Below are positions 939-50,883 of a DNA stretch of 64,000 nucleotides, one piece after another. How positions within the stretch are numbered: position 1 is the stretch's first letter; each line of letters opens with the position of its first letter. Source of the stretch: Dehalococcoidia bacterium (lineage in GTDB: Bacteria > Chloroflexota > Dehalococcoidia > Plut-88900); the NCBI GenBank assembly GCA_965249275.1, contig CBDFLQ010000005.1, positions 480,001 through 544,000 of the forward strand, in the 5' to 3' direction. A program made the translations under genes and the position numbers. The notes below the pieces were generated by a model. It was not told where the DNA came from and searched no databases. It saw nothing but the letters and a program-made list of their open reading frames with translations.

Positions 939-2192
939 CTAAGGGTCACCTCCCTCCCCAGCTAACATCTTGCACATTTCTCCGGCTGCCACCTCCTCGG
1001 CAGTCGGGGGTCGTTCCCCCCACCCGACCTCGAACAGGGCTTCCAGCCCTACGGACCCCCTCACACACTCGGCCAGGTCTCCTGTCATGTCCCCGCGTGG
1101 AATCGTGAGAATAGTGAGATCGAGGCTATACAGAGCTTCGGCAAGGCCGCTTCTGGCAAAGATGTCGGAATAGGAGAAAATCGGCTCCTCGCAATGATCG
1201 AAGACCCACAATAAAACGCTGTCGAGGTCGCTGGTCCCCGCAACCAGTTCCTGGTAAGGGGCGACGCCGATTTCATTCTCCACGCATTTCTGCCCTTCTG
1301 GCGGGAACGCCCGAACAACGAGGCCTTTCTCCTCTGGGTTAAGGGTCCCGTCCAGCAATCGCTGCAGGTAGTCCAGGTCCAGGACCGACTCGGGCGCGGA
1401 GATGTCCACTGCCGACCCAAACCCCGAGTACTCTGCGTTGAAATACTCCCCATTCTTGTCGAACCGCGCCTCAATGCGCAGGGGAAGCAGGTCGTCCCGG
1501 CTTATCCATATCTCAATCTCAGTTACCTCGTCCCTCGACCGGGCCCCGACGTTAAAGCCCATTGCTTCATCGAGCCGCCTCGTCGCTGTACCCGTGACTC
1601 GATAGACAGGCCCGACCTCAATCGCCTCGGAGCTTCGCACCTCCAGGTCACCTGTCCCTTCAGCCAGGAGTGCCAGATCATAAGGGAAATCTTGGGCTGT
1701 CCTGCGCGCCCAGGTCGTCCCGCTGTAGTCGAACCACACGCGGAAGCCGGGAGGTCGAGAGTAGGGAAGGCCATCCACGAACAGAAACTCGTCTGCGTTT
1801 GTCCCTATCCGGGTAGCCCAGGATTCGTGGACGTACCCCTTGTCGGGAGGCACGATCTCGGCATTGATTTCGGTAGTCACTGCGCCGTTCTCGATAACTA
1901 CCAAGACCCGAAAAGATGCCTGTGCCCGCAAATTCTCGATAGCCGACTCAAGAATGTGGAAAGCTCTCGATGGCGTAGGTGTCGGGCTTGCTGTCGGGAC
2001 AGGTGTCGGCGCAGGAGTTGGAGTGTCGGTTGGGGTCGGGGATGGGGTGGGCGTAGTGGTCGAGAGCGAGGTGGGTATGGGAGCAGCGGTGGGTGTGGGC
2101 GTTGGCGCCGGGGTCGCTGTCGGGACCGCACCCCCGCACCCGAGCACGGCAAACACTAACCCGACCACGATAAGGACCCACAAAGGCTTCAT
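939..2192 (-). CDS. Lipoprotein with Pro/Thr linker and LppX/LprAFG-like domain
   Basis: Signal peptide ending VLGC, PT-repeat linker, IWISRDDLLPLRIE and YSGFGSAVDISAP motifs; ATG 2192 (GTG 2195 is an alternative start). Confidence 0.8.
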   Translation of the reverse strand: MKPLWVLIVVGLVFAVLGCGGAVPTATPAPTPTPTAAPIPTSLSTTTPTPSPTPTDTPTPAPTPVPTASPTPTPSRAFHILESAIENLRAQASFRVLVVIENGAVTTEINAEIVPPDKGYVHESWATRIGTNADEFLFVDGLPYSRPPGFRVWFDYSGTTWARRTAQDFPYDLALLAEGTGDLEVRSSEAIEVGPVYRVTGTATRRLDEAMGFNVGARSRDEVTEIEIWISRDDLLPLRIEARFDKNGEYFNAEYSGFGSAVDISAPESVLDLDYLQRLLDGTLNPEEKGLVVRAFPPEGQKCVENEIGVAPYQELVAGTSDLDSVLLWVFDHCEEPIFSYSDIFARSGLAEALYSLDLTILTIPRGDMTGDLAECVRGSVGLEALFEVGWGERPPTAEEVAAGEMCKMLAGEGGDP

Positions 2193-2227
2193 CACCCCAC
2201 CCTACCACACCCTCCCCCCGACCCCGT

Positions 2228-2236
2228 TGCTATAAT
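2228..2236 (+). promoter_or_regulatory. Extended -10 promoter for pcrA (near-leaderless transcript)
   Basis: TGcTATAAT ends 9 nt before ATG 2246, with no room for an SD. Confidence 0.5.
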
Positions 2237-2245
2237 CAATGGGCA

Positions 2246-4444
2246 ATGATCACACACAACCTGTTAGAAGGCCTGAACCCACCCCAGAAAGAAGCCGTCG
2301 AGAACGTCGACGGGCCTCTGCTCATCCTCGCCGGGCCGGGGAGCGGCAAGACCAGGGTCATCACTACCCGCATCGCCTACCTGATGCGCGTGGTCGGCGT
2401 GTACCCAAGCCGCATGATGGCCGTGACCTTCACCAACAAGGCTTCAAAAGAGATGCGGGAGCGGGTGTTTGATCTCGTGGGTGAGGACACCGAGCGGCTC
2501 ACCCTCGGCACTTTCCACGCCATCTGCGTCCGGATTTTACGAACCAGCGGCGAACCCATCGGCCTCGACAGAAACCTCGTCATCTACGACGAGGACGACA
2601 AGGCCTCCATCATCAAGGACGCAATGAAGGACCTGAATATCGACCCCCGGAACTTCCCGCCCCGGGGCATGAGCTCGGCCATCTCGGCATCCAAGAGCCA
2701 GATGATCGACGCCCAGGACCACCACCTTCACGTCCACAGCTATTTCGACGAGGTCGTGGGTCGGGTCTTTCAGCGTTACCAGGCCATACTCGAAGAGAAC
2801 AACGGCGTGGACTTCGACGACCTGCTTCTCAAGGCCGTACAACTCTTCGACCGTTCCCCCGAGACCCTCGAAAAGTACGCCAACCGCTACCGCTACCTGC
2901 TGATAGACGAGTTCCAGGACACGAACGTCGTGCAGTACAGGCTGGCAAAGCAGATGGCGAGCCAGCACGGGAACATCTGCGTAGTCGGCGACCCGGACCA
3001 GTCGATTTACTCATGGCGCCACGCCGACATCCGCAACATCCTCAGCTTCGAAAAGGACTTCCCCAAGGCCAAGGTGATCTACCTGGAGCAGAACTACCGC
3101 TCGACGCAGACCATCCTGGAGTCTGCCCACAACGTCATCGCTGCCAACCAGCAGCGGAAAGAGAAGAACCTCTGGACCGACAACGGGCAGGGCGTCCCCA
3201 TCACTATGTCGGAGGCCTACAACGAGCAGGACGAGGCCCAGACCGTCGCCAAGGAGATCGAGCGCCTGATGCGGGACGACGATCACGACCTTGGGGATAT
3301 AGCGGTGATGTACCGCACCAACGCCCAGTCCCGCGTACTGGAGGAGTCCTTCCTGAGGTACGGCATCCAGTACCGGCTTGTGGGCGGCACCCGCTTCTAC
3401 GAACGTCGGGAGGTGAAGGACATCGTCGGCTACCTGCGGCTCGTGCACAACCCCTACGACTCCGTCAGCCTGCGCCGGGTGATCAACGTGCCCAAACGGG
3501 GAATCGGGCAGAAGACGGTGGACGGGCTGATGATGTGGGCGCAGCAGCTGGGCATGCCACCCTACACCGCGCTTCAACTGCTGGCTCACAACTCAGAGGA
3601 GAATGGCAATGGGCCCGAGCCACCCTTCGGCAGCGCGGCGAGACGCTCGCTGACCAGCTTTCTGGTAATGCTCGACGAACTGCTGGAAGTGGGCAAGGGG
3701 GGCGACGTGGTCCATCTCATCAGCATGGTGGCGGAAAGGACGGGCTACAAGGACTTCCTGCTCGACTCCGAGGACCGCGGAGAAGACCGCTGGGAAAACA
3801 TCATGGAGCTGCGGTCCGTCGCCGCCGAGTACCGGGGCCTGGAACCCGGCGAGAGCCTGACCGCCCTGCTGGACGGCGTGGCCCTGGTATCTGACACCGA
3901 CGAGCTGGACGGCAAGGCAAACGCCGTGACCCTGATCACGCTCCACCAGGCCAAGGGGCTCGAATATCCGGTGGTGTTCCTGGTCGGGATGGAGGAAGGA
4001 CTGCTTCCTCACCGCCGCTCCATCGACGACCCAGACCAGATGGAGGAGGAGCGTCGGCTGTGCTACGTGGGCATGACTCGGGCCAAACAGCGGCTCTACC
4101 TGCTGAGGGCCTTTCGCAGGAACATGATGGGGTCCAGCAACGTCAATCCCCCTTCACGTTTCCTGGAAGCCATCCCCAAGGGCCTCACTGCCAACTTCTC
4201 AAAGACTCCCCAAGGCTACCAGACCCGCGCCGACGACCTGTGGTGGTCACCGCCGAAGCGAAGGGTAGCCAAAGAGGGCGAGTTCTCCGCCGGAGACCGG
4301 GTCAAGCACGGCACGTTCGGGGAGGGGATAGTGGTCTCGTGTGCGGCGTCGGGGGACGACCAGATGGTCACGGTAGCCTTCAAAGGCACCCTCGGCATCA
4401 AGAAGCTGCTCCAGAGCTACGCCCCCCTGGAAAAAATCACCTAG
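2246..4444 (+). CDS. pcrA: ATP-dependent DNA helicase PcrA/UvrD
   Basis: AGPGSGKT, DEFQDTN, VGDPDQSIY, LEQNYRS, TLHQAKGLE, EERRLCYVGMTRA and C-terminal GDRVKHGTFGEG Tudor-like domain. Confidence 0.97.
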   Translation: MITHNLLEGLNPPQKEAVENVDGPLLILAGPGSGKTRVITTRIAYLMRVVGVYPSRMMAVTFTNKASKEMRERVFDLVGEDTERLTLGTFHAICVRILRTSGEPIGLDRNLVIYDEDDKASIIKDAMKDLNIDPRNFPPRGMSSAISASKSQMIDAQDHHLHVHSYFDEVVGRVFQRYQAILEENNGVDFDDLLLKAVQLFDRSPETLEKYANRYRYLLIDEFQDTNVVQYRLAKQMASQHGNICVVGDPDQSIYSWRHADIRNILSFEKDFPKAKVIYLEQNYRSTQTILESAHNVIAANQQRKEKNLWTDNGQGVPITMSEAYNEQDEAQTVAKEIERLMRDDDHDLGDIAVMYRTNAQSRVLEESFLRYGIQYRLVGGTRFYERREVKDIVGYLRLVHNPYDSVSLRRVINVPKRGIGQKTVDGLMMWAQQLGMPPYTALQLLAHNSEENGNGPEPPFGSAARRSLTSFLVMLDELLEVGKGGDVVHLISMVAERTGYKDFLLDSEDRGEDRWENIMELRSVAAEYRGLEPGESLTALLDGVALVSDTDELDGKANAVTLITLHQAKGLEYPVVFLVGMEEGLLPHRRSIDDPDQMEEERRLCYVGMTRAKQRLYLLRAFRRNMMGSSNVNPPSRFLEAIPKGLTANFSKTPQGYQTRADDLWWSPPKRRVAKEGEFSAGDRVKHGTFGEGIVVSCAASGDDQMVTVAFKGTLGIKKLLQSYAPLEKIT

Positions 4445-5082: not shown

Positions 5083-6417
5083 TCAGTCCTGGGCCTTAAT
5101 CTCTTGGACGACTCGGTCTCCGGACTGGACGGCGCCGTTGGTAAACCCGGCACTTGTGTAGTCGCCGCAGAAGTGGAGCCTACCGACGGGTTTCTGCAGC
5201 AGGGGATAGATCTCGGTGTGGCCGGGTTTCCAGAGGGGTATGGCGTGGTTCCAATGGGCGACGTCGGACTCTACGATCTTGCCGCGGACGGCAGGGACCA
5301 TCTCCACAAGGTCGTCAAGCAGGACTTCCGTCACCTCGCCGTCCGAGCGAGACATGAGGTCCTTGGCAACTGCGTTGCCGGTGTAGACGCGCAGGATCCC
5401 CATGCCAGTCTTGCTCTTGTAGTCATCGGGATAGGTGAAGGAGGGGTCAGTTATAGCGCAGACCTTCTGGCCGGAGACGGGAACCCGCCATACGCCTTTG
5501 CCGATGAGGTTTTCGGAAAGCTCATCTACCAGGAAGGCAGCGGTGGTCATGGAGCCGTATTCAATTTTGGCGAGAGCCTCCCGTTTCCAGTCGGGGAGGT
5601 CCTGGGTGCAGTTGAGGGTGATGGGAGCCGGGGTGGCCATGACGCAGCGTCGAGCCTGCACGGTGTCCTTCTTGCCTCCGCGGTCATAGGTGACCTGGAC
5701 TCGATCCTCCAGCTCTTTCACTTCGAGCACTTCGGCGCCGAGAACCGCTTTGTCACCGAGCAAACGGTGGAGGGCGATGGTAACTTGGTTGGTCCCGCCC
5801 TCAACGAAATATTCGTCGGCCATGAAGAAGAGGATGACCATGAGGGGGTGGAAGGGGGTGACGGTGTCGGCGCCCATGGTGCTGGCGGTTACGGCGAAGA
5901 CGTCCCACAACTCGCGCACGGATTTCGGGGCGTTGCCTAAGAATTCGTCGACGGTGGTGGAATTGAGCTCGATGACCTTGGGGTCGGTGGGATCGAAGTC
6001 GGCGTTTAAGAGGGACTTGTACTTGCGCCGAGTCTTCCAGATGTGCCAGGCGAACTTGATCTTGTCCAGGAAGGGTATGGGCATCTTGAGAAGGAGCCCG
6101 TACTCGTTGGAGGATGCGACCAGCTTGCCATTCATATAGAGGGGCAGCTTGGACTTGGCAATAAGGGTGCGCTTGACTCCTATCTCATCAACGAGCGTGG
6201 CCAAGGGGCCCGTGTCCCCGAGGACGACCTGGGCCCCGGCGTTGTAGACGTAAGGGCCGAGCGTGCGGGATTCGGTCCGGCCGCCGGGAATCTCCTCCTT
6301 TTCCAGTAGGAGGATGTTTCGGTCCCGCATGCGGTAGGCAGCGGTAAGGCCGGCAAGGCCACCACCTACGATAACGAGGTCAAGGAGGGAGTCTGGAGTG
6401 TTTGGTGTATCCGGCAT
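5083..6417 (-). CDS. FAD-dependent oxidoreductase (flavin amine oxidase/HemY-like)
   Basis: IVGGGLAGLTAA...LLEK...GGRT Rossmann motif; C-terminal LHFCGDY...GAVQSG. Confidence 0.9.
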   Translation of the reverse strand: MPDTPNTPDSLLDLVIVGGGLAGLTAAYRMRDRNILLLEKEEIPGGRTESRTLGPYVYNAGAQVVLGDTGPLATLVDEIGVKRTLIAKSKLPLYMNGKLVASSNEYGLLLKMPIPFLDKIKFAWHIWKTRRKYKSLLNADFDPTDPKVIELNSTTVDEFLGNAPKSVRELWDVFAVTASTMGADTVTPFHPLMVILFFMADEYFVEGGTNQVTIALHRLLGDKAVLGAEVLEVKELEDRVQVTYDRGGKKDTVQARRCVMATPAPITLNCTQDLPDWKREALAKIEYGSMTTAAFLVDELSENLIGKGVWRVPVSGQKVCAITDPSFTYPDDYKSKTGMGILRVYTGNAVAKDLMSRSDGEVTEVLLDDLVEMVPAVRGKIVESDVAHWNHAIPLWKPGHTEIYPLLQKPVGRLHFCGDYTSAGFTNGAVQSGDRVVQEIKAQD

Positions 6418-6435
6418 GACGGGTCTATCTTTGGG

Positions 6436-7785
6436 CTAGGCCGCCGGTTCCTGTTGCAATTCTCTCAGCACGCGTTGGGCAGAGAGAACTGCGGCCTCCA
6501 AGCCTCCGCTGACAGTGTAATCGCCGCAGTAGTGGATGCGGCCCGTGGGTTGCTTGATCTGCTCGGCGATTTCGAGCCGGCCCACGCGCCAAGGGCTGAT
6601 GGCGTGGGGCCAGTGCCTTATGGAGGTCTGCACGATCTTGCCCGCTATGTCAGGGAAGGCGGAGACAAGCTCCTCAGTGAGGACTTCAAGGGCTTCGCCG
6701 TCGGACATCTGCTGGAGCTCCTTGGAAGCCTTGTCACCCGTGTAGACTCGCAGGAGCCCCTGGCCCGTGCGCTGCTTGACCTCCTTGGGGAAGGTGAAGG
6801 TGGGGTTGGTCACCGAGACGATCTTCTTGCCGACAATCGGTACGCGCCAGACGCCTTCGCCGAGGAATCGCTCCGAATTCTCGCTGAGAAGGAAACCGGC
6901 GGAGGTCATGGCGCCGAAGTCGACCTTGGCAAGGACATCGCGCTTCCATTGAGGCATGTCCTTGACGATGGGCGACACGAGGGGGCCAGGAATGGCGATT
7001 ACGCAGCGTCGGGCGGTAACGGACTTACGCTGGCCGGCGTGGTCGTAGCTGACGCGAACGGCGCCGTTTTCGTGGACTATCTCGTCGACGCTTGCAGAGG
7101 TCTCGGTCTTGTCTTTGACATTGTCCCAGAGGGCCTTGGTCAGCTCCCACGTGCCGCCATTAACGTAATATTCGGCCTCCGCGAAGTGAAGGAAGGTGTT
7201 GATGGGCTGGAAGGCGGCGACCTGGTCGGCGGTGACGGTGTTGGCGCCCTTGGAGAGGGTGTCCCAGATGGCGCGGATATCGGGGTGATAGGCGCCCATA
7301 AAGCTTTCGAGAGTCTCGCCGGAGAGCTCCTGGGTCTTCTTGTTATAGGGGTCGGGCTCCTGGTCGACGAGCTCCCTGTATCGGCGGCGGATTCGGAGGA
7401 CCTTGAGACCCATCTTCACCTTTTCGAGGAAAGGTATTGGCAGTCGCCAGAGGAACAGAGGCTCGCCCAGGGTTTTGGGTTTGAGGGGGGCCGTGATGAG
7501 CTTGCCTTTCATGTGCATCGGCATTCGGGTTTTGCCGATGAGGGTCTTTTCTACCCCGATCTCCCGGGCGAGCTTTGCCGTTTCGCTTTCGTCGCCGAGG
7601 ACGACCTGGGCACCGGTGTTGTAAACGTATTCGCCCATCTTGCGGGAGATGGTGCGGCCACCGCACACATCCTCTTTTTCGAGGACAAGGATGTTCTTGT
7701 CTTTAAGCCGGTAGGCAGCAGTCAATCCCGCTATCCCCGCTCCCACAATTACGGCATCAAGGACATTGTTGTCGTCTTCTGGCAT
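6436..7785 (-). CDS. FAD-dependent oxidoreductase, paralog of 5083-6417
   Basis: IVGAGIAGLTAA, GGRT, IHYCGDY...AAVLSA; colinear similarity to the neighbour. Confidence 0.9.
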   Translation of the reverse strand: MPEDDNNVLDAVIVGAGIAGLTAAYRLKDKNILVLEKEDVCGGRTISRKMGEYVYNTGAQVVLGDESETAKLAREIGVEKTLIGKTRMPMHMKGKLITAPLKPKTLGEPLFLWRLPIPFLEKVKMGLKVLRIRRRYRELVDQEPDPYNKKTQELSGETLESFMGAYHPDIRAIWDTLSKGANTVTADQVAAFQPINTFLHFAEAEYYVNGGTWELTKALWDNVKDKTETSASVDEIVHENGAVRVSYDHAGQRKSVTARRCVIAIPGPLVSPIVKDMPQWKRDVLAKVDFGAMTSAGFLLSENSERFLGEGVWRVPIVGKKIVSVTNPTFTFPKEVKQRTGQGLLRVYTGDKASKELQQMSDGEALEVLTEELVSAFPDIAGKIVQTSIRHWPHAISPWRVGRLEIAEQIKQPTGRIHYCGDYTVSGGLEAAVLSAQRVLRELQQEPAA

Positions 7786-8830: not shown

Positions 8831-8943
8831 CATTCCGCCCTAGAGACCCCCTTCGAGAGCCTCAGGACAGGCTTCGACTAGGCTTACGCCACGGTCGTAC
8901 GCCAAAGGCGCACTTGCAGCATCTTCGACAGGGCGAGCGGAAT
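8831..8943. repeat. Palindromic repeat family A (ATTCCGCTC...GAGCGGAAT) with nested inserts
   Basis: Homologous to copies at 9596, 14661, 24038, 25268 and 27643. Confidence 0.8.
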
Positions 8944-13400: not shown

Positions 13401-14561
13401 ATGAAGACGGCAACTTGGCAGTACTTCACCCTGGAGGAATACCAGGGCAGGTTGGACGCTCTAAGGGCGCGGATGGAGGCGAAGGGTGTGGACTGCATGA
13501 TGGTACACACGCCGGAGAACCTGTATTACCTAACCGGGTACCAGACCCCCGGCTACTATTGGTACCAGACGTTGATAGTAACCATGGACCGGGAGCCGGT
13601 GTTCATAACCCGCCTACTGGAGAACTCCAACGTAGAGCACCTGACTTGGGTGGAGGACAGCCGGCCCTACGGGGACTCGGACGACTGGGTGGCTCGGACG
13701 CGGGACACACTGGAGGACCTGGGGATGGGGTCGAAGAGGATAGGGGTGGAGATGAGCTCCTGGTTCATAACCATCCAGGACTACGACAGGTTGAAGGGGA
13801 TGCTGCCGGACGCGAAGTGGGTGGACTGCTCGATGATGGTGGAAGAGGGGCGGATGATCAAGTCGCCGAAGGAGATCGAATACATTACGCAGGCTGCCCG
13901 GGCCACGGAGGCAAGTGTACTGGCGGGGATCGAGGCGTCGGCGGTGGGGGCTACGGAGAACGAGGTCGCCGCGGCGGTGTATGCGGCGCAGATAAAGGCG
14001 GGAAGCGAATACACGGGGCTGCCCCTCTTCGTCACCGCCGGTAAGAGGTCGTTCCTCGGACACGTGACATGGTACCGGGAGACGATACAGCCGGGGGACA
14101 CGGTGTTCCTGGAGCTATCGGGTTGCATCAACCGGTACCACGCCTCGCAGATGCGGAACGTGTACCTGGGTGATCCGCCGGAGGGATCCATAAAGGCGAC
14201 GGGCGTGATGGCTGAGGCCCTGGAGGAGATGATCAAGTTCATAAAACCTGGGGTCACGGCGCACGATGCCCACATGGTGTGCAAGAACGTCATTGGGGGG
14301 GCGGGGCTGGGGGTGGAGCTGACTCACCGGGCAGCGTATTCCATAGGAATAGCGTTTGCGCCGGACTGGGGCGAAGGGCACATTATCAGCATGAACGAGG
14401 GTGAATACCGGGAGTTGAAGGCCGGGATGACCTTCCACCTGATACCGGCTATTTTTATACCGGGGCTGTCGTCGGTGGGGGTGAGCGAGACGGTGTTGGT
14501 GACGGAGACCGGTTGTGAGCCGATAACTGGGAATGTGGAGAGGAAGCTGTTTTCGAAGTAG
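13401..14561 (+). CDS. M24/creatinase-fold hydrolase, ectoine hydrolase (DoeA/EutD)-like, copy 1
   Basis: FTLEEYQGRL, PENLYYLTGY, RMIKSPKEI, ELSGCINRYHA, AYSIGIAFAPDWGE. Confidence 0.88.
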   Translation: MKTATWQYFTLEEYQGRLDALRARMEAKGVDCMMVHTPENLYYLTGYQTPGYYWYQTLIVTMDREPVFITRLLENSNVEHLTWVEDSRPYGDSDDWVARTRDTLEDLGMGSKRIGVEMSSWFITIQDYDRLKGMLPDAKWVDCSMMVEEGRMIKSPKEIEYITQAARATEASVLAGIEASAVGATENEVAAAVYAAQIKAGSEYTGLPLFVTAGKRSFLGHVTWYRETIQPGDTVFLELSGCINRYHASQMRNVYLGDPPEGSIKATGVMAEALEEMIKFIKPGVTAHDAHMVCKNVIGGAGLGVELTHRAAYSIGIAFAPDWGEGHIISMNEGEYRELKAGMTFHLIPAIFIPGLSSVGVSETVLVTETGCEPITGNVERKLFSK

Positions 14562-14603
14562 AGGGATAGACCTTCCAGTCACAAGAACGGGGATCACCCT
14601 GGC

Positions 14604-14710
14604 CCTCTCCCATCGAGAGACCTTTGCGTAACTCCGGGCGGGGGCCGGGACACCCCACCGATTCCGCTCTTGAGACCCTTCGACTCAGCTCAGGGCAAGC
14701 GGAATACCCC
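14604..14710. repeat. Composite repeat: REP half-hairpin, ACCTTTGCGTAAC end and family A core
   Basis: Near-identical architecture at 25211-25318 and 23988-24104. Confidence 0.75.
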
Positions 14711-14769
14711 GCCATCTTAGGCGGGGTTAGGCAATGGATCAACAAAGAGAGAGGGCAACGGAGGAATAG

Positions 14770-15930
14770 GTGAAGAAACCGAACTGGCAGTATTTTGAGC
14801 TGGAGGAGTACCAGCAGAGGCTCGATGCACTTCGGGGGCGGATGGAGGGGTTGGGGGTGGATGCGGTGCTGGTGAACACGCCGGAGAACCTTTACTACCT
14901 CTCGGGTTATCAGACGCCGGGGTATTACTGGTGGCAGACGCTGGTGGTGCCGATGGACCGGGAGCCAGTGTCGGTCACGCGTAGGGTGGAGGACTCGAAC
15001 ATGCGGGAGCTGGGGTGGGTCGAGGACCGGCGCCCGTATGAGGACTATGAGGACTGGGTGGAGAAGACGCGGGATGTGCTGGTGGACCTGGGGCTTGGGG
15101 GGAAGACGATCGGGATGGAGCTTGGGAGTTTCTTTCTTCCGGCAAGGGACTACCTGAAACTGCAGAGCCTGATGCCGGGGGCCAAGTTCGTGGACAGCAC
15201 GGGACTAATCGAAGAGGGGCGGATGATCAAGTCTCCACAGGAGATCGAATACATGCGGCAGGCGGCTAAAGCTGCAGAGGCAGCTACGCTGGCCGGTATA
15301 GAGGCGGTGGGGTTGGGGGCAACGGAGAATGACGTGGCGGCGGAGATGCACAGGGCACAGATCAAGGCAGGAAGCGAGTATACGGGCTTGCCGATTTTCG
15401 TGGCCTCGGGGGTGCGGTCTACGATGACGCACGCCACCTGGTACCGCAGGCCCCTGCAGGAAAACGAAGTCGTGTTCTTCGAGGTGCCGGGGTGCGTAAA
15501 CCGTTATCACGTCGCCATGATGAGGGAAGTGTATATAGGGGAGCCGTCGGAGTTGATGGTGAGGGGTATGGATGTCGTGACCAACACCCTCAGGAAGGCC
15601 AAGGAGAAAATCAGGCCGGGGGTCGTGGCGGGGGACCTTTTCGAAGAGATCAAGGAGATGCTGGACTCGGCGGACCTGGGGGCGAAGCTGGAGCGTCGGG
15701 CGGCGTACTCGATAGGCATAGCCTTCGCTCCCGACTGGGGTGAAGGGCACATCATCAGCATCACGAGAGGCGAGGAGCGATCCCTGCAGGCAGGCATGGC
15801 CTTCCACCTGATTCCCGGGGTACGGATCCCGGGGTTCGGGGGCATCCTATGCAGCGACACGGTCCTGGTCACGGAGGACGGTTGTGAGACGCTGACGGGT
15901 GGGGTGGAACAGAAGTTGTTTGTGAAGTGA
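14770..15930 (+). CDS. M24/ectoine hydrolase-like, copy 2
   Basis: GTG start after GGAGG; same motifs (EVPGCVNRYH, YSIGIAFAPDWGEGH). Confidence 0.88.
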   Translation: MKKPNWQYFELEEYQQRLDALRGRMEGLGVDAVLVNTPENLYYLSGYQTPGYYWWQTLVVPMDREPVSVTRRVEDSNMRELGWVEDRRPYEDYEDWVEKTRDVLVDLGLGGKTIGMELGSFFLPARDYLKLQSLMPGAKFVDSTGLIEEGRMIKSPQEIEYMRQAAKAAEAATLAGIEAVGLGATENDVAAEMHRAQIKAGSEYTGLPIFVASGVRSTMTHATWYRRPLQENEVVFFEVPGCVNRYHVAMMREVYIGEPSELMVRGMDVVTNTLRKAKEKIRPGVVAGDLFEEIKEMLDSADLGAKLERRAAYSIGIAFAPDWGEGHIISITRGEERSLQAGMAFHLIPGVRIPGFGGILCSDTVLVTEDGCETLTGGVEQKLFVK

Positions 15931-16104
15931 CTATTGGCGATGCGCGGCTTAGACTTGGGAACACCCTCATTCTCCTCAGAGAACCTACGGCCCTAGCCCT
16001 CTTCCGTCGAGGGAGAGGGGAGAGAACACCTCCCCCGCCCCAGATTCCTCGCGGAGCCTCGGAATGACGGTAATGCAAGGACCTCTTTTGGAGACAGCTA
16101 AGGA

Positions 16105-17286
16105 GTGGACATGAGAAGCCCCAAGTACCAGTTCTTCACGCTTGAAGAATATCAAGGACGGCTGGATGCGCTGCGACGGCGGATGGAAGAACGGGGGATT
16201 GATGTTCTGCTGGTCAACTCGCCGGAGAACTTGTATTACGTTTCCGGTTACCAGACTCCCGGCTACTACTGGTACCAGACGCTGATAGTGACGATGGACC
16301 GAGAGCCGGTGTTCATCACCCGACTCAATGAGGAGTCCAACATTGCGCCTCAATCCTGGGTCGAGGATAGTCGGCCCTACGAAGACCACGAGGACTGGAT
16401 AGCGCACACCCGGGACGTGCTGATGGACTTGGGTAAGGCAGATGCGCGCATCGGGGTACAGTATGACTCGTTCTTCCTGACATCCAGGGACGAGAAGGGG
16501 CTTGCGGCTGCCTTATCGTCGGCGAGGTTTGTCGATGGGTCGGGGCTGGTGGAGGAGGGGAGGATGGTGAAGTCGGCACAGGAGATCGAGTACATAAGGC
16601 AGGCGGCGAAGACGGCGGAGGCGGGGTTGAGGGCGGGGATCGAGGCTTGCCAGGTGGGGGTGACGGAGAATGACGTGGCGGCGGAGATTCATCGGGCGCA
16701 GATCAAGGCGGGGAGCGAGTACACGGGACTTCCGATATTCATAAGGACGGGGGAGCGGGACTCGATGACCCATTCGACGTGGTATCGGAACGTGATACAA
16801 CCCGGAGACAGCGTGACGATAGAGATGCCGGGGTGCATCAACCGCTATCACGCAGCGACATACAGACAGATATTCCTCGGTGACCCGCCTGAACTGCTGC
16901 TCAGGGCAAGGGAAGTGGGAAGCGAGGTTATGGCGAAGGCGAAGTCGGCGATCAGGCCGGGGGTCCCGGCGGGGGATATACACCGGCTGGTGCAGGAGAG
17001 CCTCGAAGAGGCGATGGGCTCGGGGAGTAAGCGAAACAGCCGGGCGGCTTATTCTATCGGAATAGCTTTTGCGCCGGACTGGGGCGAGGGGCATATTATT
17101 AGCATGACCGAAGGGGAGACCCGGCCACTTCAGGCGGGAATGACCTTTCACCTGCTGGCGGGACACGTGGCCCTGCAGGGTCTCGACAGGGTGAAGAGGG
17201 CGGTGAACAGTGACACGATTCTCGTCACGGAGGATGGGTGCGAGACGCTGACGGACGGGTTGGAGCATAAGCTGTACGTGAAATAG
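16105..17286 (+). CDS. M24/ectoine hydrolase-like, copy 3
   Basis: Same motifs (EMPGCINRYHA, YSIGIAFAPDWGEGH); true start may be ATG 16111. Confidence 0.88.
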   Translation: MDMRSPKYQFFTLEEYQGRLDALRRRMEERGIDVLLVNSPENLYYVSGYQTPGYYWYQTLIVTMDREPVFITRLNEESNIAPQSWVEDSRPYEDHEDWIAHTRDVLMDLGKADARIGVQYDSFFLTSRDEKGLAAALSSARFVDGSGLVEEGRMVKSAQEIEYIRQAAKTAEAGLRAGIEACQVGVTENDVAAEIHRAQIKAGSEYTGLPIFIRTGERDSMTHSTWYRNVIQPGDSVTIEMPGCINRYHAATYRQIFLGDPPELLLRAREVGSEVMAKAKSAIRPGVPAGDIHRLVQESLEEAMGSGSKRNSRAAYSIGIAFAPDWGEGHIISMTEGETRPLQAGMTFHLLAGHVALQGLDRVKRAVNSDTILVTEDGCETLTDGLEHKLYVK

Positions 17287-19643: not shown

Positions 19644-20804
19644 CTAGCCGACGGTGGGGGTGGGGGAGGGTAGGCGGTAGAGGGCCAGGGCGTTTTCGCC
19701 GAGGATTTTGCGCTGGTCGGCTTCGGGGAGGGTGGAGATGTTTTCCTTGACCTTTCTCAGGGGGTCGGTGTGACCCTCGGGGTGGGGCCAGTCGGATCCC
19801 CACATGAAGCGGTCGGCGCCGACGATCTGAGCCACGGCTCCGAGGCCCTTCTCGATGGGCTCGGCGCTGATCCAACACTGTCGCTTGAAGTACTCGCTGG
19901 GCTTCATGGTGAGGATGGTGTCGAAGCCGAAGCGGGAGAACTTGAAGTCCAGGAAGTCGAGCCAGTGGGCGACCCAGGTGGAGCCAATCTCGACCATGGA
20001 GATGCGGAGGTTGGGGAACTTTTCGAAGACGCCTTCAGTCATCATGTTGGTGAAGGAGAGGAAGGGGTCGCCGAAGACCATGGACTCGACGAAGAACTCG
20101 GGGCCGAGGCCGGGGTGGTCGGGGTAGAGGTGCTTGCCCACGTAGTTGGGGTTGAAGATGACGTGGAGCGTTATGGGCATGTCGAGGTCCTGGGCGGCAG
20201 CCCAGAAGGGGTCGTAGTAGGAGTCTCCGTAACGGATGCCGTTGACGGGGGCAGGGCAGATGAAGGCCCCTTTCATGCCCTCCTTGGCGGCACGTTGGAG
20301 CTCGGCGACGCCGAACTCGACCTCTCTGACGGAAACGTGGGCCACGGGGAAGAGCTGGTCCGGGTGGTCTTTGCAGAAGTCTACGAGCCAGCGGTTGTAG
20401 GCCCGGCAGTAGGCGTCGGAGATTTCGGCGTTTTCGCACTCGGCTTCCCAGCCCAGGCCGAGAGAGGGGAAAAGAAAGGTCTTGTCGACGCCCTCTCTGG
20501 CGAGGTGCTTGATCCTTTCATCGGGGTAGGCAGCCCCGGGAGCGATAATTGCGGCCTCCGCGTAAGGGAGGGTGGCGTGCTCCATCATCCAGTCCCGGTC
20601 CTTTGTGACTCCGGCGATACGGCCGAGGGCGCCGCCGTTGTAGCCGCTGCTCATCTTGCCATCGATGTCCAGGTATTCGAGACCGAGCTCATCTAATTCG
20701 ATGCCCATGGCGCGGGAGCGGTAGGCGGGGTCGATGTAGTCACGCCACATATTGGCGGGTTCTATGATATGGCTGTCGGAGTCGACAATTGTTCCTGCTG
20801 ACAT
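19644..20804 (-). CDS. Amidohydrolase_2 family protein
   Basis: DSDSHIIEP, FPSLG, YNRWLVDFC, LHV, FMWGSDWPHPEG. Confidence 0.92.
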   Translation of the reverse strand: MSAGTIVDSDSHIIEPANMWRDYIDPAYRSRAMGIELDELGLEYLDIDGKMSSGYNGGALGRIAGVTKDRDWMMEHATLPYAEAAIIAPGAAYPDERIKHLAREGVDKTFLFPSLGLGWEAECENAEISDAYCRAYNRWLVDFCKDHPDQLFPVAHVSVREVEFGVAELQRAAKEGMKGAFICPAPVNGIRYGDSYYDPFWAAAQDLDMPITLHVIFNPNYVGKHLYPDHPGLGPEFFVESMVFGDPFLSFTNMMTEGVFEKFPNLRISMVEIGSTWVAHWLDFLDFKFSRFGFDTILTMKPSEYFKRQCWISAEPIEKGLGAVAQIVGADRFMWGSDWPHPEGHTDPLRKVKENISTLPEADQRKILGENALALYRLPSPTPTVG

Positions 20805-20823
20805 GGCAGATGCTCCTTTTCGG

Positions 20824-21987
20824 CTAGCCCACGGCGGGGGCGGGCACGGACAGGCCGTACATGGCTAGGGCGTTTTCGCCCAGTATCTTGTTCTGGTCGG
20901 CTTCCGAAAGGGAGGCGATGTTCTGCTTGACTTTGTTGAGGGGGTCAGTGTGGCCCTCGGGGTGGGGCCAGTCGGAGCCCCACATGAAGCGATCAGTCCC
21001 AACCATTTGGGCAACGGCCCCGAGACCCTTCTCGATGGGTTCGGCGCTGACCCAGACCTGACGGCGGAAGTAGTCGCTGGGGGTCATGGTCAGAGGCATG
21101 TCGAAGCTGAATCGGTCGATCTTGAAGTCCATCATGTCGAGCCAGTGGAGGAGCCAGGTGCAGCCAACTTCGACCATGGATAGTTTCAGGCCGGGGAACT
21201 TTTCGAAGGTGCCGTCACCCATCATGCAGGTAAAGCTGATGAGGGGATCTGCGAAGGTCATTACGTTGTTGAAGAACACGGGGCCGAGACCAGTTTCGTC
21301 TTCGGGATATGAATTGCGGCCCGGGTAGTCTGGGTTGAGGACTACGTGGAAGGTTATGGGCATGTCCAGGTCCTGGGCGGTGGCCCAGAAACGGTCATAA
21401 TACTCGTGGCTGTACCGGATCCCGTTCATGGGGGCGGGGCAGATGAAGGCGCCTTTCATGCCGTCCTTTGCAGCCCTCTCCAGCTCTTTGATGCCCTCGT
21501 TCACGTCTCGTACCGTGACGTGGGCTATGGGGATCAGCCGGTCGGGATACGGCGCACAGAAATCGACGAGCCACCGATTATAGGCCGTGCAGTAGGCGGC
21601 GGAGAGCCTGGGGTCTTCGCACTCTGCTTCCCAGCCCAGGCCTAGGGTCGGGAATAGGAAGGTCTTGTCTACTCCGTGCTTGTCCAGGTGGGCGATTCTT
21701 GCGTGAGGGTCCACTGATCCTGGGGCGATGTTCTTGAGCTCATCGTAGGGGAGAGTGGGATGCTCCATCATCCACTCTCGGGTCTGGTCGACACCCCCGA
21801 TCCTGCCCAGGGTGCCACCGTTGTACCCGATGCTGACCTTCCCATCGATGTCCAGATATTCCAAGCCGAATTCATCCACACTGATTTTCAGGGCCCGGCT
21901 ACGGAACTCGGGGTCCATGTATTCCTGCCACAAGGTGGCCGGTTCCATGATGTGGCTGTCGGCGTCGACGACTATTCCTGATGCCAT
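20824..21987 (-). CDS. Amidohydrolase_2 family protein, paralog
   Basis: DADSHIMEP...FMWGSDWPHPEG; colinear with the neighbour. Confidence 0.92.
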   Translation of the reverse strand: MASGIVVDADSHIMEPATLWQEYMDPEFRSRALKISVDEFGLEYLDIDGKVSIGYNGGTLGRIGGVDQTREWMMEHPTLPYDELKNIAPGSVDPHARIAHLDKHGVDKTFLFPTLGLGWEAECEDPRLSAAYCTAYNRWLVDFCAPYPDRLIPIAHVTVRDVNEGIKELERAAKDGMKGAFICPAPMNGIRYSHEYYDRFWATAQDLDMPITFHVVLNPDYPGRNSYPEDETGLGPVFFNNVMTFADPLISFTCMMGDGTFEKFPGLKLSMVEVGCTWLLHWLDMMDFKIDRFSFDMPLTMTPSDYFRRQVWVSAEPIEKGLGAVAQMVGTDRFMWGSDWPHPEGHTDPLNKVKQNIASLSEADQNKILGENALAMYGLSVPAPAVG

Positions 21988-22004: not shown

Positions 22005-22130
22005 CTAGGCTGAGGCGTTGGGCACGATGCGGATGGTGCGGGGCTTGAACTCGGGTTCGAGGTAGTCCAGCCACATGGAAGCGTGTTCAGTAACGTGTCT
22101 TTCGGCATCGACTATAACGCCGGTCGACAT
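22005..22130 (-). pseudogene. 41-aa N-terminal stub of a third amidohydrolase
   Basis: MSTGVIVDAERHVTEHASMWLDYLEPEFKPRTIRIVPNASA* aligns to MASGIVVDADSHIMEPATLWQEYMDPEFRSRALKI. Confidence 0.75.
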
Positions 22131-22599
22131 GCTGGTGTGTTCCCCCCAGAGCAAATACAGCAACGAACGAATTCCGAGTATACATTTGAGGGAAATGTCG
22201 GGTCAACACGGCGCCTCATCCGCACATATGGAGTACGGCGTCGCGGGCCGAAGGGGGCTCGTCCCGGTGGGGATTTTTGATTGATGCGCGGACTCAGGCG
22301 TGATTTTTGATTGTTTTAGGGGGAAATGTTCCGGTTTTCCCCGGGATGGGGACGGGAGATGGGGGGATAGAGACCTCATAGGATGGCGCATTATACGAAA
22401 TTGGGGTGGGGGTGGGGCAATGGGCTCGTGTCACATTGGGGGAGGGCTTTGCGCGACGGATTGGCAGTGCGGGGCCGCCCCGCTCGACCCTTCGACTCTG
22501 CTCCCGCCTTAGGCGGATCTTCGACAGGGTGAGCGGCCTCACCTCCTCGGGGAGGGGATGGTGTAGAATTTAGGTATATCAGGGATAGTCGGAGGGAGA

Positions 22600-23067
22600 A
22601 TGCTGAAGGCAGGGACTCGGGCCCCGGATTTTGAGGCGGTGCAGCATGACGGCGAGAGGTTTTGCTTTGCCGATTGGCGAGGCGACAGCCCCGTAGTCAT
22701 CTATTTCTACCTGAAGAACTTTACTGTCGGCTGAAACCGTCAAGCTCGTGGCTTCCGTGACGCATATGAGGCTATAAGTGGGTACGGGGCCCAGGTTGTC
22801 GGGGTTAGCACCGACAGCCCGGAAAGCCACGACCGGTTCCGGAGCTGGTTGTCGATCCCTTTCACCTTGCTGTCCGACTCCGACAAGAAGGTAGCTCGAC
22901 TCTACGACGTTGCCCGTAGGATGGGGCTTGGGGTGTCTCGGGTGACCTACGTTATCGATAAGTCGGGGGTCATCAGGGATGTATTCCATCACGAGGTGAG
23001 AATCGGCAAGCATGTGGAGGACGTGCTGGAAGGGGTGAAGGCGCTGGACAGGGAGAGGGGAGGGTGA
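22600..23067 (+). CDS. BCP/PrxQ-type peroxiredoxin, probable selenoprotein (Sec45)
   Basis: GGAGGGAG SD, then MLKAGTRAPDF...VVIYFYLKNFTVG-TGA(22732)-NRQARGFRD...GVSTDS...LLSD...RVTYVIDKSG; one frame throughout, 155 aa. Confidence 0.88.
22750..22773 (+). promoter_or_regulatory. Putative bacterial SECIS hairpin
   Basis: GGCUUC...GAGGCU stem with an apical G 25 nt after the UGA. Confidence 0.45.
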
Positions 23068-23275
23068 CCTCAAGGGATCGGCCTTACTGGAGAGAGGGGA
23101 GGGAATGGATTAACGCTCTGCCAAAGGCGGACTTTCAGCTCGGCGCACGCTATAGGCGCACTTGCAGCATCTGCGGCCTGCACTCCATAGGCGCATCTGC
23201 GACCTACGCAGGAATTACGAGTGGAAAAGGGGGCTGGTGTAGAATTGAGTTATATCAGCCATATGCGGAGGGAGA

Positions 23276-23755
23276 ATGCTAAAGGTAGGGACCAGGGCCC
23301 CGGATTTCGAGGCGGTGCGGCATGACGGCGGGACGTTCAGACTGAGCGAGCACTTTGGCCGTCAACCCGTGGTGCTGTATTTTCACACAGGGGCCTTCAG
23401 CGTCCTCTGAAATATCCAGTCCAAGGGCTTCCGTGATGCGGATGAAGCCTTCCAGGGATACAACGCCCTAGTCGCCGGGATCAGTCCCAATACCCCCGAG
23501 GTGAATGCACAGTTCCGGAGAGAGTTTGGGATGCAGGCTGTTCTGCTGTCCGACCCGGAGAGAAAGATCAGGAAAGCCTATGATTCGCTGCGGGTGTTCG
23601 GGGGGTTCAGGACGGCTTACCTGATTGATAAGTCGGGGGTGGTGCGGGGGGCACATGAATACGTGGTTGTGGGGATAGGTCGGCACGTGAAGAAGCTGCT
23701 CAAGGGGTTGGAGAAGCTGCGGGAGGAGGAGTTGGTGGGGGGATTAACTTCGTAG
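23276..23755 (+). CDS. Second BCP-type peroxiredoxin, probable selenoprotein (Sec45)
   Basis: MLKVGTRAPDF...VVLYFHTGAFSVL-TGA(23408)-NIQSKGFRD...GISPNT...LLSD...RTAYLIDKSG; 159 aa. Confidence 0.85.
23424..23451 (+). promoter_or_regulatory. Putative bacterial SECIS hairpin
   Basis: AGGGCUUC/GAAGCCUU stem topped by CGU-GAU-GCG; loop G 25 nt after the UGA. Confidence 0.5.
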
Positions 23756-23996
23756 GCATTCGACTGACGGGTGTTGTGGGAGTTGGGTTACTGTCACTTT
23801 CCTCAGCGAGCCCCAATTGGGTAGCTTATTCATACCTAGTCAATCGTGAATTCTTGTCCCTGGGTTTACGCCACAGCGCACCTTCGGCCCGTTTTCACGG
23901 GAAAGACGGTTATGCGGGGGTCTTGCCTCGGCGCACGCGAAGGGCGTATTTGCAGAATCTGCGATCCTCCAAGGGCGGGCCTTTGGCCCATCGAGG

Positions 23997-24177
23997 GGCC
24001 CTTGCGTAACTCCGGGTTGGGGCCGAGAAGCCCCGCCCATTCCGCTCTGGAGACCCTTCGACTTGGCTCACGCCATGGCGCATCTTCGACAGGGCGAGCG
24101 GAATACTCAGTCCCAGGAATGGAAATGCCATACTTCGTTAGCAGGTTCAGGGGCGGGAATGAAGGTTATGCAAAGGT
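23997..24177. mobile_element. Putative MITE-like non-autonomous element
   Basis: Imperfect terminal inverted repeats GCCCTTGCGTAAC / GTTATGCAAAGGT; CCATCGAGGG occurs on both sides (23988, 24201). Confidence 0.5.
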
Positions 24178-24286
24178 AACGCCAAAGGCGCGTCTGCGAA
24201 CCATCGAGGGAGATGGGAGAGAATCACACCTACAGAGCCGGACTCCGTAGATGTGGCGAGAATACTCTGCCGGGCTTGTAAGAGGA

Positions 24287-25078
24287 TCAGGTAACGGCTT
24301 CTTCCATGCGGCGTATGAAGTCTCGGATGGCGCGGAAGTAGGCGTCGGTGTCGACGAACATGATGTCGTTGTGACCGGCGCCGGGGATGGTGAAGAAGGT
24401 CTTGTCGGTGGAGGCTACGGCTTCGTAGAGGTCCTGGGGGTGGGAGATGGGGACGAGGAAGTCACGGTCGCCGTGGATGATGAGCAGTGGGGTGTCGATG
24501 CTCTGGACCCGGGCCCAGTGGTCCTGGAGAAGCTGGGAGATGACGGGGGTCTCGGCGATACCGAGCCTTTGAGGCATTCCACCGACGTTGGCCGAGCCAC
24601 TTTCGATGATCATGCCCTTAATCTTTTCTCGGGCGCCCGCGGCTATCTCGACAGCGCAGTAGGCGCCGAGGGACCGGCCCATCACGTAGATTGAGGGAGC
24701 GTAACCGTTTTCGCTCAGAAACGTCTCCAAGGCAGCAAGGGCAGTATGACTGTCTTCAACCAAGGCGGATACCGAGGGTTCTCCCTGGGATTTGCCGTAG
24801 CCTCGGTAGTCGGTGACGAAGAGGTTTAGGCCGATGTGGTTGTAAAGGGAGGAAATGGCGTCGTATTCGGGGGCGACTTCACCGTTGCCGTGGAAGAAGA
24901 GGATAGTGGGGCGTTGTTTATCTTCGGGGAAGAAACGGCCGCATAGCTGGACCCCGTCATGGGAAGGGAAGGTGTGGTCCAGGGCGCCGGTTGGAGGGGG
25001 TGAGGAGTCGGGGCGGGGGTAGAACATGTAGTGGGTGATTTGGGGGAGGTCGAGGAGGGTGTAGTCGAGCTTGTTCAA
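24287..25078 (-). CDS. Alpha/beta hydrolase
   Basis: FFHGNGE, DYRGYGKS, GRSLG nucleophile, IIHGDRD, GAGHND. Confidence 0.93.
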   Translation of the reverse strand: MNKLDYTLLDLPQITHYMFYPRPDSSPPPTGALDHTFPSHDGVQLCGRFFPEDKQRPTILFFHGNGEVAPEYDAISSLYNHIGLNLFVTDYRGYGKSQGEPSVSALVEDSHTALAALETFLSENGYAPSIYVMGRSLGAYCAVEIAAGAREKIKGMIIESGSANVGGMPQRLGIAETPVISQLLQDHWARVQSIDTPLLIIHGDRDFLVPISHPQDLYEAVASTDKTFFTIPGAGHNDIMFVDTDAYFRAIRDFIRRMEEAVT

Positions 25079-49710: not shown

Positions 49711-49770
49711 GCATCATAATAACGCGTCATTCTCAGCATCATTATAGCGCATCATATTCAGGTGCATCAT
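49711..49770 (-). promoter_or_regulatory. vapBC promoter with five ATGA(T/C)GC direct repeats
   Basis: GC(A/G)TCAT at 49711, 49724, 49736, 49749 and 49764; minus-strand TATAAT at 49741-49746. Confidence 0.55.
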
Positions 49771-50882: not shown

Positions 50883-50883
50883 G

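Follow-up and report, generated by a model that had tools for sequence, protein, structure and literature searches.

The 64,000-nucleotide (nt) stretch analysed here in its entirety, referred to as the window, comes from a Dehalococcoidia bacterium (assembly GCA_965249275.1, contig CBDFLQ010000005.1, positions 480,001 to 544,000 of the forward strand) and contains two adjacent genes, designated A and B, that very probably encode complete selenoproteins, namely peroxiredoxins (Prx) of the BCP/PrxQ class. In both, the UGA at codon 45 appears to be read as selenocysteine (Sec) with the aid of a small downstream mRNA hairpin, and the products would act as peroxidases through a 1-Sec catalytic cycle. 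A preliminary description of the same DNA had proposed a duplicated and diverged 1-Sec Prx subfamily, and this proposal is supported by the grouping of A and B in one clade, the conservation of the TGA codon, purifying selection, a hairpin resembling a Sec insertion sequence (SECIS) and the lack of any other conserved Cys.

Both genes lie on the same strand and each is broken solely by TGA at codon 45, at which the table 11 list of open reading frames (ORFs) cuts them into a 44-amino-acid (aa) N-terminal piece and a C-terminal piece of 72 or 84 aa. The two split BCP/PrxQ-like frames had been recognised in the preliminary description, with their TGA codons correctly placed at 22732 and 23408, as had a duplication of the region upstream of each gene. 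The latter is real: a direct repeat of 108 nt (22554-22661 and 23230-23337, 86% identical) takes in the leader elements GGTGTAGAATT and GGAGGGAG together with the first ~62 nt of the coding sequence of A and B.

On the level of family and fold, both read-through products match the Pfam domain AhpC-TSA (PF00578; cutoff 26), A with 116.2 bits (E 1.1e-33, positions 2-123 of the 124 in the profile) and B with 86.6 bits (E 1.7e-24, positions 1-122). The best NCBIfam match of both is PRK09437 (thioredoxin-dependent thiol peroxidase), at 94.5 bits for A and 52.1 bits for B, below the cutoff of 140. Neither is a member of PrxU (NF040737), where the cutoff is 270 and A and B reach 55.2 and 34.5 bits, or of Prx-SUH (NF045827), which matches A only, with 17.5 bits for a cutoff of 298. 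Among solved structures, Bcp1 (3drn_A) is the nearest in sequence (E 1.2e-32 for A and 1.1e-21 for B). An AlphaFold model of the gene B product, built from a 37-row alignment, has a mean predicted local distance difference test score of 92.5 and agrees with 3drn_A at a template modelling (TM) score of 0.90 and a root-mean-square deviation of 1.5 A; in this model strand 32-36 is followed by helix 43-54, which has residue 45 at its beginning.

Conservation of the interrupting codon

The position of the TGA was assessed against 197 full-length homologues, obtained from two database searches and aligned with A and B. As the preliminary description had stated, the codon falls exactly on the peroxidatic Cys, the column being C in 195 of the 197 proteins. 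One full-length BCP homologue, P0215, has W in this column (FFPKALTSG-W-INEAS) and is probably another TGA-Sec gene that its source's gene caller translated under a TGA=W table. In addition, a scan of a genome collection returned 80 loci, of which 66 carry TGY at the peroxidatic codon, five carry TGA and nine were left unparsed by the motif pattern. The five TGA loci comprise three on complete chromosomes of Dehalococcoidia metagenome-assembled genomes, namely L001 (OZ244800.1), L005 (OZ220734.1) and L007 (OY764147.1), and two from Acidobacteriota, L030 and L031. A and B stand in tandem in L001 and L005, and B stands alone in L007. The A orthologues (L001 3001-3510 and L005 3001-3504) are 86% and 72% identical to the window gene at the aa level, and the B orthologues of L001, L005 and L007 are 95%, 67% and 68% identical. 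With the window genes these make up a clade of seven genes from four genomes, all of which carry TGA at codon 45 (three of three A genes and four of four B genes), a recurrence beyond chance.

The selection acting around the codon was estimated as well. The ratio of nonsynonymous to synonymous substitution rates (dN/dS), estimated pairwise by the Nei-Gojobori method for three A and three B genes with the B gene of L005 left out, is 0.04-0.19 over codons 1-44, 0-0.22 over the 20 codons 3' of the TGA (one pair being incomputable, with dS saturated) and 0.11-0.32 over the remainder of the gene, and the whole-gene value for B is 0.12-0.15. Over the gene as a whole, dS is often saturated and rises to 1.5-1.7 for the more distant pairs of genomes. 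No further stop or frameshift occurs in any of the seven clade copies.

These values bear directly on the supposition that A and B are decaying pseudogenes in which the TGAs arose as inactivating nonsense mutations, a supposition that could appeal to the splitting of both genes by standard ORF calling and to the fact that no Sec machinery was seen in the window. Decay of this kind is nonetheless highly improbable, given the retention of the same TGA codon in all seven genes across such synonymous distances, the constraint on both sides of it (dN/dS 0.04-0.32), the lack of other lesions and the conservation of the start codon and ribosome-binding site. The preliminary description had already judged chance nonsense mutation implausible, a judgement that the shared TGA and the two-sided purifying selection bear out. 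It had also looked to homologues with Cys or TGA at this column, both of which were found, and had regarded other stops or random residues at this codon, with relaxed selection downstream, in close homologues as evidence to the contrary; neither was seen in the clade, every clade gene carrying TGA and downstream dN/dS lying between 0 and 0.32.

Database records of close relatives present the same interruption in another form. All clusters at least 67% identical to A (13 of 13) and at least 93% identical to B (two of two) are C-terminal fragments of 86-107 aa, no full-length match exceeds 52% identity to A or 39% to B, and a Cys form of the clade did not appear among the database matches. Since all close relatives are fragmentary and the full-length matches distant, the entire clade would appear to be interrupted at the TGA site. 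The prediction of such fragments by public gene callers could also be taken to mean that translation does end at UGA, so that the N-terminal 44 aa and a C-terminal fragment translated from an internal start would be separate products. This is scarcely credible: the Prx fold requires both halves, with Sec at the start of the helix that follows strand 32-36 in the model; purifying selection extends, in all computable pairs, to the 20 codons that separate the TGA from the predicted internal starts; and the predicted internal starts vary among relatives (MVG.., MSIPF.., MFRT..). Furthermore, TGA ends 12 of the 44 Pfam-supported genes of the window, gene A among them, so that the code is not reassigned. 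Altogether, the conservation of the TGA, the selection on the frames and the normal use of TGA as a stop point away from pseudogenes and to site-specific recoding.

Active site, history and proposed mechanism

The two proteins depart from the PxxxTxxC motif in an unusual manner, with the motif Pro lost in both genes and the Thr lost in B. The Pro, present in 196 of the 197 homologues, is replaced by L in all three A genes and by T (window, L001) or N (L005, L007) in B. The Thr column, which holds T in 195 homologues and S in two, retains T in all three A genes and is S (window, L001) or G (L005, L007) in B; the A genes read TxxU (T-V/A-G-U), and the B genes SxxU in two cases and GxxU in two. 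The residues after U are NRQ, NIQ or RIQ, with no Cys or Sec at +3 and hence no UxxC or UxxU motif. The catalytic Arg is kept in all seven clade genes (R114 in A, R112 in B), as in 196 of the 197 homologues.

The preliminary description had read these motifs correctly (YLKNFTVGU and HTGAFSVLU, with the conserved Pro replaced; it is absent from all seven genes) and was equally right that the Arg is kept. Its remark on the missing resolving Cys at +5 stands as an observation, this residue being absent from all seven genes (R in window A and K in window B; R or Q among the A genes, K among the B genes), but not as a distinguishing feature: 35 of the 197 Cys homologues lack it too, the nearest Cys relatives P0014 and P0024 (52% and 47% identity) are likewise without it, and a resolving Cys at +5 is a mark of the atypical 2-Cys type and not of the entire BCP/PrxQ subfamily. 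No other Cys is conserved among the clade proteins, and window gene B contains no Cys at all.

The ancestry of the pair was approached with a quick maximum-likelihood tree of 52 rows, comprising eight Sec genes and 44 of the 197 Cys homologues taken from the top of both match lists, with the B gene of L005 left out and the Sec column masked as X. In this tree A and B form one clade (Shimodaira-Hasegawa-like approximate likelihood ratio test support 97), apart from the two Acidobacteriota Sec-BCPs, and the stem branch of B measures 0.79 as against 0.094 for A. Since A and B make up one clade, the tree suggests that Sec arose once in the Dehalococcoidia lineage and that the gene was then duplicated; since the Acidobacteriota Sec genes fall elsewhere, an independent Cys-to-Sec switch is suggested for them. 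After the duplication, copy A would have stayed near ordinary BCPs and copy B would have diverged fast.

Synteny adds to this history. Around the gene pair, window and L001 run collinear, with 85-91% nucleotide identity wherever they align, which marks the window as coming from a related member of the Dehalococcoidia, and the window, L001 and L007 have in common a neighbourhood of an amidohydrolase, A where present, B, a 263-aa alpha/beta hydrolase, an ABC-2 permease and an ABC ATPase. In L007, where the locus is otherwise syntenic, no A-type remnant was detected by tblastn in the ~1-kb gap upstream of B (1966-3000), and this genome may either have lost A or never have received it. A heterodimer of A and B with Sec-Sec resolution in trans was also considered; as an obligate pair it is argued against by this same locus, with its B gene and no A.

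The proposed mechanism draws on the known chemistry of the peroxiredoxin family. UGA codon 45 would be decoded as Sec, helped by a small mRNA hairpin starting 16 nt downstream, following one ancestral Cys-to-Sec switch in the Dehalococcoidia lineage and a subsequent tandem duplication. The Sec45 selenolate, aided by the Arg and, in A, by the Thr, would attack a hydroperoxide and become a selenenic acid, which, as no resolving Cys is available, would be reduced directly by an external thiol reductant (a thioredoxin- or glutaredoxin-like protein or a small thiol), completing a 1-Sec cycle. We infer peroxidase activity for both A and B. Loss of the Pro, and of the Thr in B, may reflect relaxed or altered active-site needs around a more reactive selenol, and gene B may have shifted in substrate or role.

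How far B may have moved is the subject of a further explanation, in which B, and perhaps A, is a true selenoprotein but no classical peroxidase, having been repurposed as a selenol redox protein with another substrate or partner, for example a different oxidant, a protein disulfide or selenenylsulfide relay, or sensing. The long stem branch of B, its substitutions at two positions that nearly all homologues keep, its low score against the BCP equivalog model of NCBIfam (52.1 bits for a cutoff of 140), the purifying selection on the whole gene and its retention without A in L007 would all be in keeping with a new role. On the other hand, the BCP fold is intact at a TM-score of 0.90, Sec and the catalytic Arg are present in four of four B genes, the neighbours (amidohydrolase, alpha/beta hydrolase, ABC-2 exporter) hint at no partner or substrate, and a selenol may simply require less help from Thr and Pro. 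Repurposing is consequently regarded as possible but unlikely. More speculative still, and held with somewhat less conviction, is the broader proposition that Sec freed the lineage from the Pro/Thr scaffold and that B represents a new functional class of selenoenzyme on the BCP fold, with non-classical chemistry or a non-classical substrate.

The downstream hairpin and the selenium context

Reading of UGA45 as Sec in a pair of peroxidases, the explanation preferred here, calls attention to the RNA that follows the codon. A hairpin occupies the same position in all seven clade genes, with a stem that begins 16 nt 3' of the UGA, consists of GGCUUC/GARGCY lengthened by 0-2 pairs and encloses a loop that opens with CGUGAY (CGU in all seven). 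Its local minimum free energy (MFE) ranges from -8.4 to -12.2 kcal/mol across the seven genes and the spacing from UGA to loop from 21 to 24 nt, the latter value being that of gene B, measured to the apical loop of the MFE fold. The constraints on bacterial SECIS (bSECIS) elements quoted in a 2026 review comprise an apical loop of 3-9 nt with a G within its first two positions, a UGA-to-loop distance of 16-37 nt and an MFE of at most -7.5 kcal/mol (PMC13188914), and the clade hairpins agree with them in spacing, loop G and energy. The sole stem changes are two substitutions in the 3' arm, both in window gene A and both retaining G-U wobble pairs, and the 5'-arm codons GGC-TTC-CGT are invariant in all seven genes. 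Among degenerate columns with an invariant amino acid, the codon is also invariant in three of seven within the hairpin and in four of 39 elsewhere, which is suggestive of synonymous-site conservation. A SECIS role for the hairpin is plausible but not demonstrated.

Several results weigh against Sec decoding and a peroxidase function. The hairpin loop extends over 12 nt past the main stem, more than the published 3-9, and comes down to 3-7 nt only with a weak apical mini-stem. The hairpin is not thermodynamically exceptional, its z-scores against shuffled sequences running from 0.20 to -0.86 in the seven genes. Mean MFE is -13.1 at nine Sec sites and -15.0 at 17 Cys loci of similar GC content (Mann-Whitney p 0.93), a comparison that drew on the 80 loci of the genome scan, five with Sec genes, 66 parsed as Cys and nine dropped. 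The RNAalifold covariation term is 0, only two pairs showing double changes; the hairpin sequence largely also codes for a conserved peptide, GFRDA-EA; and an Rfam scan of the entire window at gathering thresholds gave no matches. The search for Sec machinery, which covered the 64-kb window and the flanks of the five Sec loci, was likewise negative: ARAGORN found no tRNA genes, and so no tRNA-Sec, in the window or at L001, L005, L007, L030 and L031, and selA, selB and selD were not among the 52 large window ORFs scanned. Moreover, no other TGA-interrupted Pfam domain appeared in the 23 read-through frames scanned out of 166 in the window, a sample selected by visual inspection of gene edges and of stretches that were poorly explained; two of the 23 gave a Pfam match, in each case to an ordinary gene 3' of the TGA. 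Finally, B lacks two residues that are close to universal, the Pro being present in 196 and the Thr in 195 of the 197 homologues.

Selenium use by the host is supported by the comparative pattern described above and by selenoprotein counts in Dehalococcoidia, two other genomes of which are reported to hold 49 and 46 selenoprotein genes and to be among the ten richest bacteria (BSepDB; PMC13326102). These considerations also bear on whether UGA might be recoded as something other than Sec, whether as Trp or Gly by reassignment, as Cys by near-cognate suppression, or as Cys via the Sec pathway at low selenium. The W of P0215 would suit such recoding, though it probably stems from a TGA=W gene call. 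Global reassignment conflicts with the well-supported window genes that end in TGA, Trp or Gly would remove the sole redox residue (B having no Cys at all), the hairpin is conserved at SECIS distance, and the lineage is reported to be rich in selenoproteins (PMC13326102). Recoding as a residue other than Sec is accordingly considered quite improbable.

Genomic setting, significance and relation to known systems

The coordinates of the genes, their Sec codons, leaders and hairpins are collected in Table 1. Leaders with a TAGAAT/TACAAT-type box and a purine-rich stretch 5' of the ATG occur in six of six aligned clade genes. In gene A the box is TAGAAT (22564-22569), resembles a -10 element and lies inside GGTGTAGAATT, and the Shine-Dalgarno-like GGAGGGAG ends one base ahead of the ATG. 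A generic sigma-70 promoter scan of 22200-24300 returned no sites, and a promoter function of the boxes is inferred only. A and B are probably transcribed separately, since a -10-like box and a ribosome-binding site precede each of them.

Table 1. Features of the gene pair, in window coordinates.
Feature	Position	Strand	Description
Leader of gene A	22560..22598	+	GGTGTAGAATT 22560-22570; GGAGGGAG 22591-22598
Gene A	22600..23067	+	Putative Sec-containing BCP/PrxQ-type peroxiredoxin, 155 codons, motif YFYLKNFTVG-U-NRQAR; ATG 22600, stop TGA 23065-23067
Gene A, candidate Sec codon U45	22732..22734	+	In-frame TGA in the peroxidatic-Cys column
SECIS-like hairpin, gene A	22748..22775	+	GGCUUC 22750-22755 pairs with GAGGCU 22768-22773; local MFE -8.4 kcal/mol
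Leader of gene B	23236..23274	+	GGTGTAGAATT 23236-23246; GGAGGGAG 23267-23274; inside repeat 23230-23337
Gene B	23276..23755	+	Fast-evolving, putatively Sec-containing BCP-fold paralogue, 159 codons, motif YFHTGAFSVL-U-NIQSK; ATG 23276, stop TAG 23753-23755
Gene B, candidate Sec codon U45	23408..23410	+	In-frame TGA, alignment column shared with gene A
SECIS-like hairpin, gene B	23424..23451	+	AGGGCUUC pairs with GAAGCCUU; apical 5-bp extension, GAU loop; local MFE -12.2 kcal/mol

Short GC-rich intergenic repeats flank and separate the two genes. One set, 22486-22536 and 24052-24101, consists of two adjoining repeats of 23 and 25 nt with 87-92% identity; another, 23139-23175 and 23927-23963, is 37 nt long with 84% identity; and the 13-mer core recurs exactly, for a third time, at 8921-8933. 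The A-B spacer measures 208 nt in the window as against about 57-62 nt in L001 and L005, a difference that points to the insertion of a repeat element between A and B in the window's genome. Just upstream of gene A, a 52-aa ORF on the minus strand (22005-22163) echoes the N-terminal part of the adjacent Amidohydro_2 protein (gene 20824-21987), the 66-nt repeat that it shares with 21904-21969 being 74% identical, and looks like the remnant of a third amidohydrolase paralogue.

Elsewhere in the window, catabolic genes occur in paralogous runs (13401-17286, 5083-7785 and 19644-21987) that include creatinase/M24 peptidases (three genes in tandem), flavin amine oxidases (two) and Amidohydro_2 proteins (two), with a luciferase-like monooxygenase, an amidase and a nitroreductase-domain protein nearby. 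The aspartate carbamoyltransferase ORF at 50884-52275 on the minus strand also matches the C-terminal metal-binding domain of PyrI (residues 366-406), which suggests a pyrB-pyrI fusion, and overlaps the start region of a carA-like ORF (49767-51146). The GC skew of the plus strand is always positive, from +0.10 to +0.31 in 2-kb windows from ~4 kb on, regardless of gene orientation. TGA usually prevails as a stop codon at ~60% GC; in the 44 window genes the commonest stop is TAG (20 genes, with TAA and TGA in 12 each), which is unusual for DNA of this composition.

The significance of the pair lies in annotation, enzymology and evolution. Both genes are split by standard gene calling and each of the 15 close relatives appears in the database as a fragment, so that the antioxidant and selenium repertoire of the lineage is under-counted. 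For enzymology, the clade offers a natural experiment on the purpose of the near-invariant Prx Pro and Thr; if a selenol does make these residues dispensable, this would bear on ideas about the activation of the peroxidatic residue and its protection against over-oxidation. In evolutionary terms, the BCP codon appears to have switched to Sec at least two times independently, in Dehalococcoidia and in Acidobacteriota, with duplication and asymmetric divergence in the former. Sec-peroxiredoxins as such are textbook selenoproteins, and the present finding extends known biology and overturns nothing. No paper was found on Pro-less or on Dehalococcoidia Sec-peroxiredoxins, although selenoproteome sequence lists or BSepDB may already include these genes, and the SAR202 selenocysteine literature, judged by titles, held none on the Sec-Prx topic.

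Among known systems, PrxU of Eubacterium acidaminophilum, which Sohling and co-workers are said to have described in 2001, reportedly carries Sec at the peroxidatic position; A and B would share this placement, but PrxU is a separate Prx subfamily. With the Cys-type BCP/PrxQ proteins, such as Bcp1 of Sulfolobus solfataricus (3drn) and PrxQ of Xanthomonas campestris (5iiz, 3gkk), the pair shares fold, length and catalytic Arg; it differs from them in having Sec for Cys, no motif Pro and no resolving Cys at +5 or elsewhere, and both members remain under the NCBIfam cutoff for the BCP equivalog. The Acidobacteriota Sec-BCPs, L030 (CAWEGO010000002.1, 3001-3453) and L031 (OY969886.1, 3001-3435), resemble A and B in carrying TGA at the peroxidatic codon of a BCP-type gene; unlike them, they retain the canonical FFPKA(D/N)TPG-U-TIEAC, with Pro, Thr and the +5 Cys, and their downstream hairpin (GCGUGCGG...) is unlike that of A and B.

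The nearest known counterpart is the Sec 'Prx' family of BCP type (TxxU, COG1225/pfam00578), reported to be among the most abundant of the known marine selenoprotein families (PMC1088965, PMC2398784), with 253 Sec as against 7,348 Cys Prx sequences in Global Ocean Sampling (GOS) data (PMC2398784) and occurrences in 78 sequenced organisms (PMC5029168); the 2026 review cited above calls its PxxxTxxU motif highly conserved (PMC13188914). A and B are like this family in their AhpC/TSA domain, in Sec for the peroxidatic Cys, in abundant Cys homologues and in a small hairpin after the UGA. Gene A fits TxxU, though without the Pro, and gene B fits neither TxxU nor PxxxTxxU. Sec-peroxiredoxins with TxxU have been known since 2001-2005, and the A/B pair is a variant of this established selenoprotein family, unlike which its clade occurs as a conserved tandem pair.

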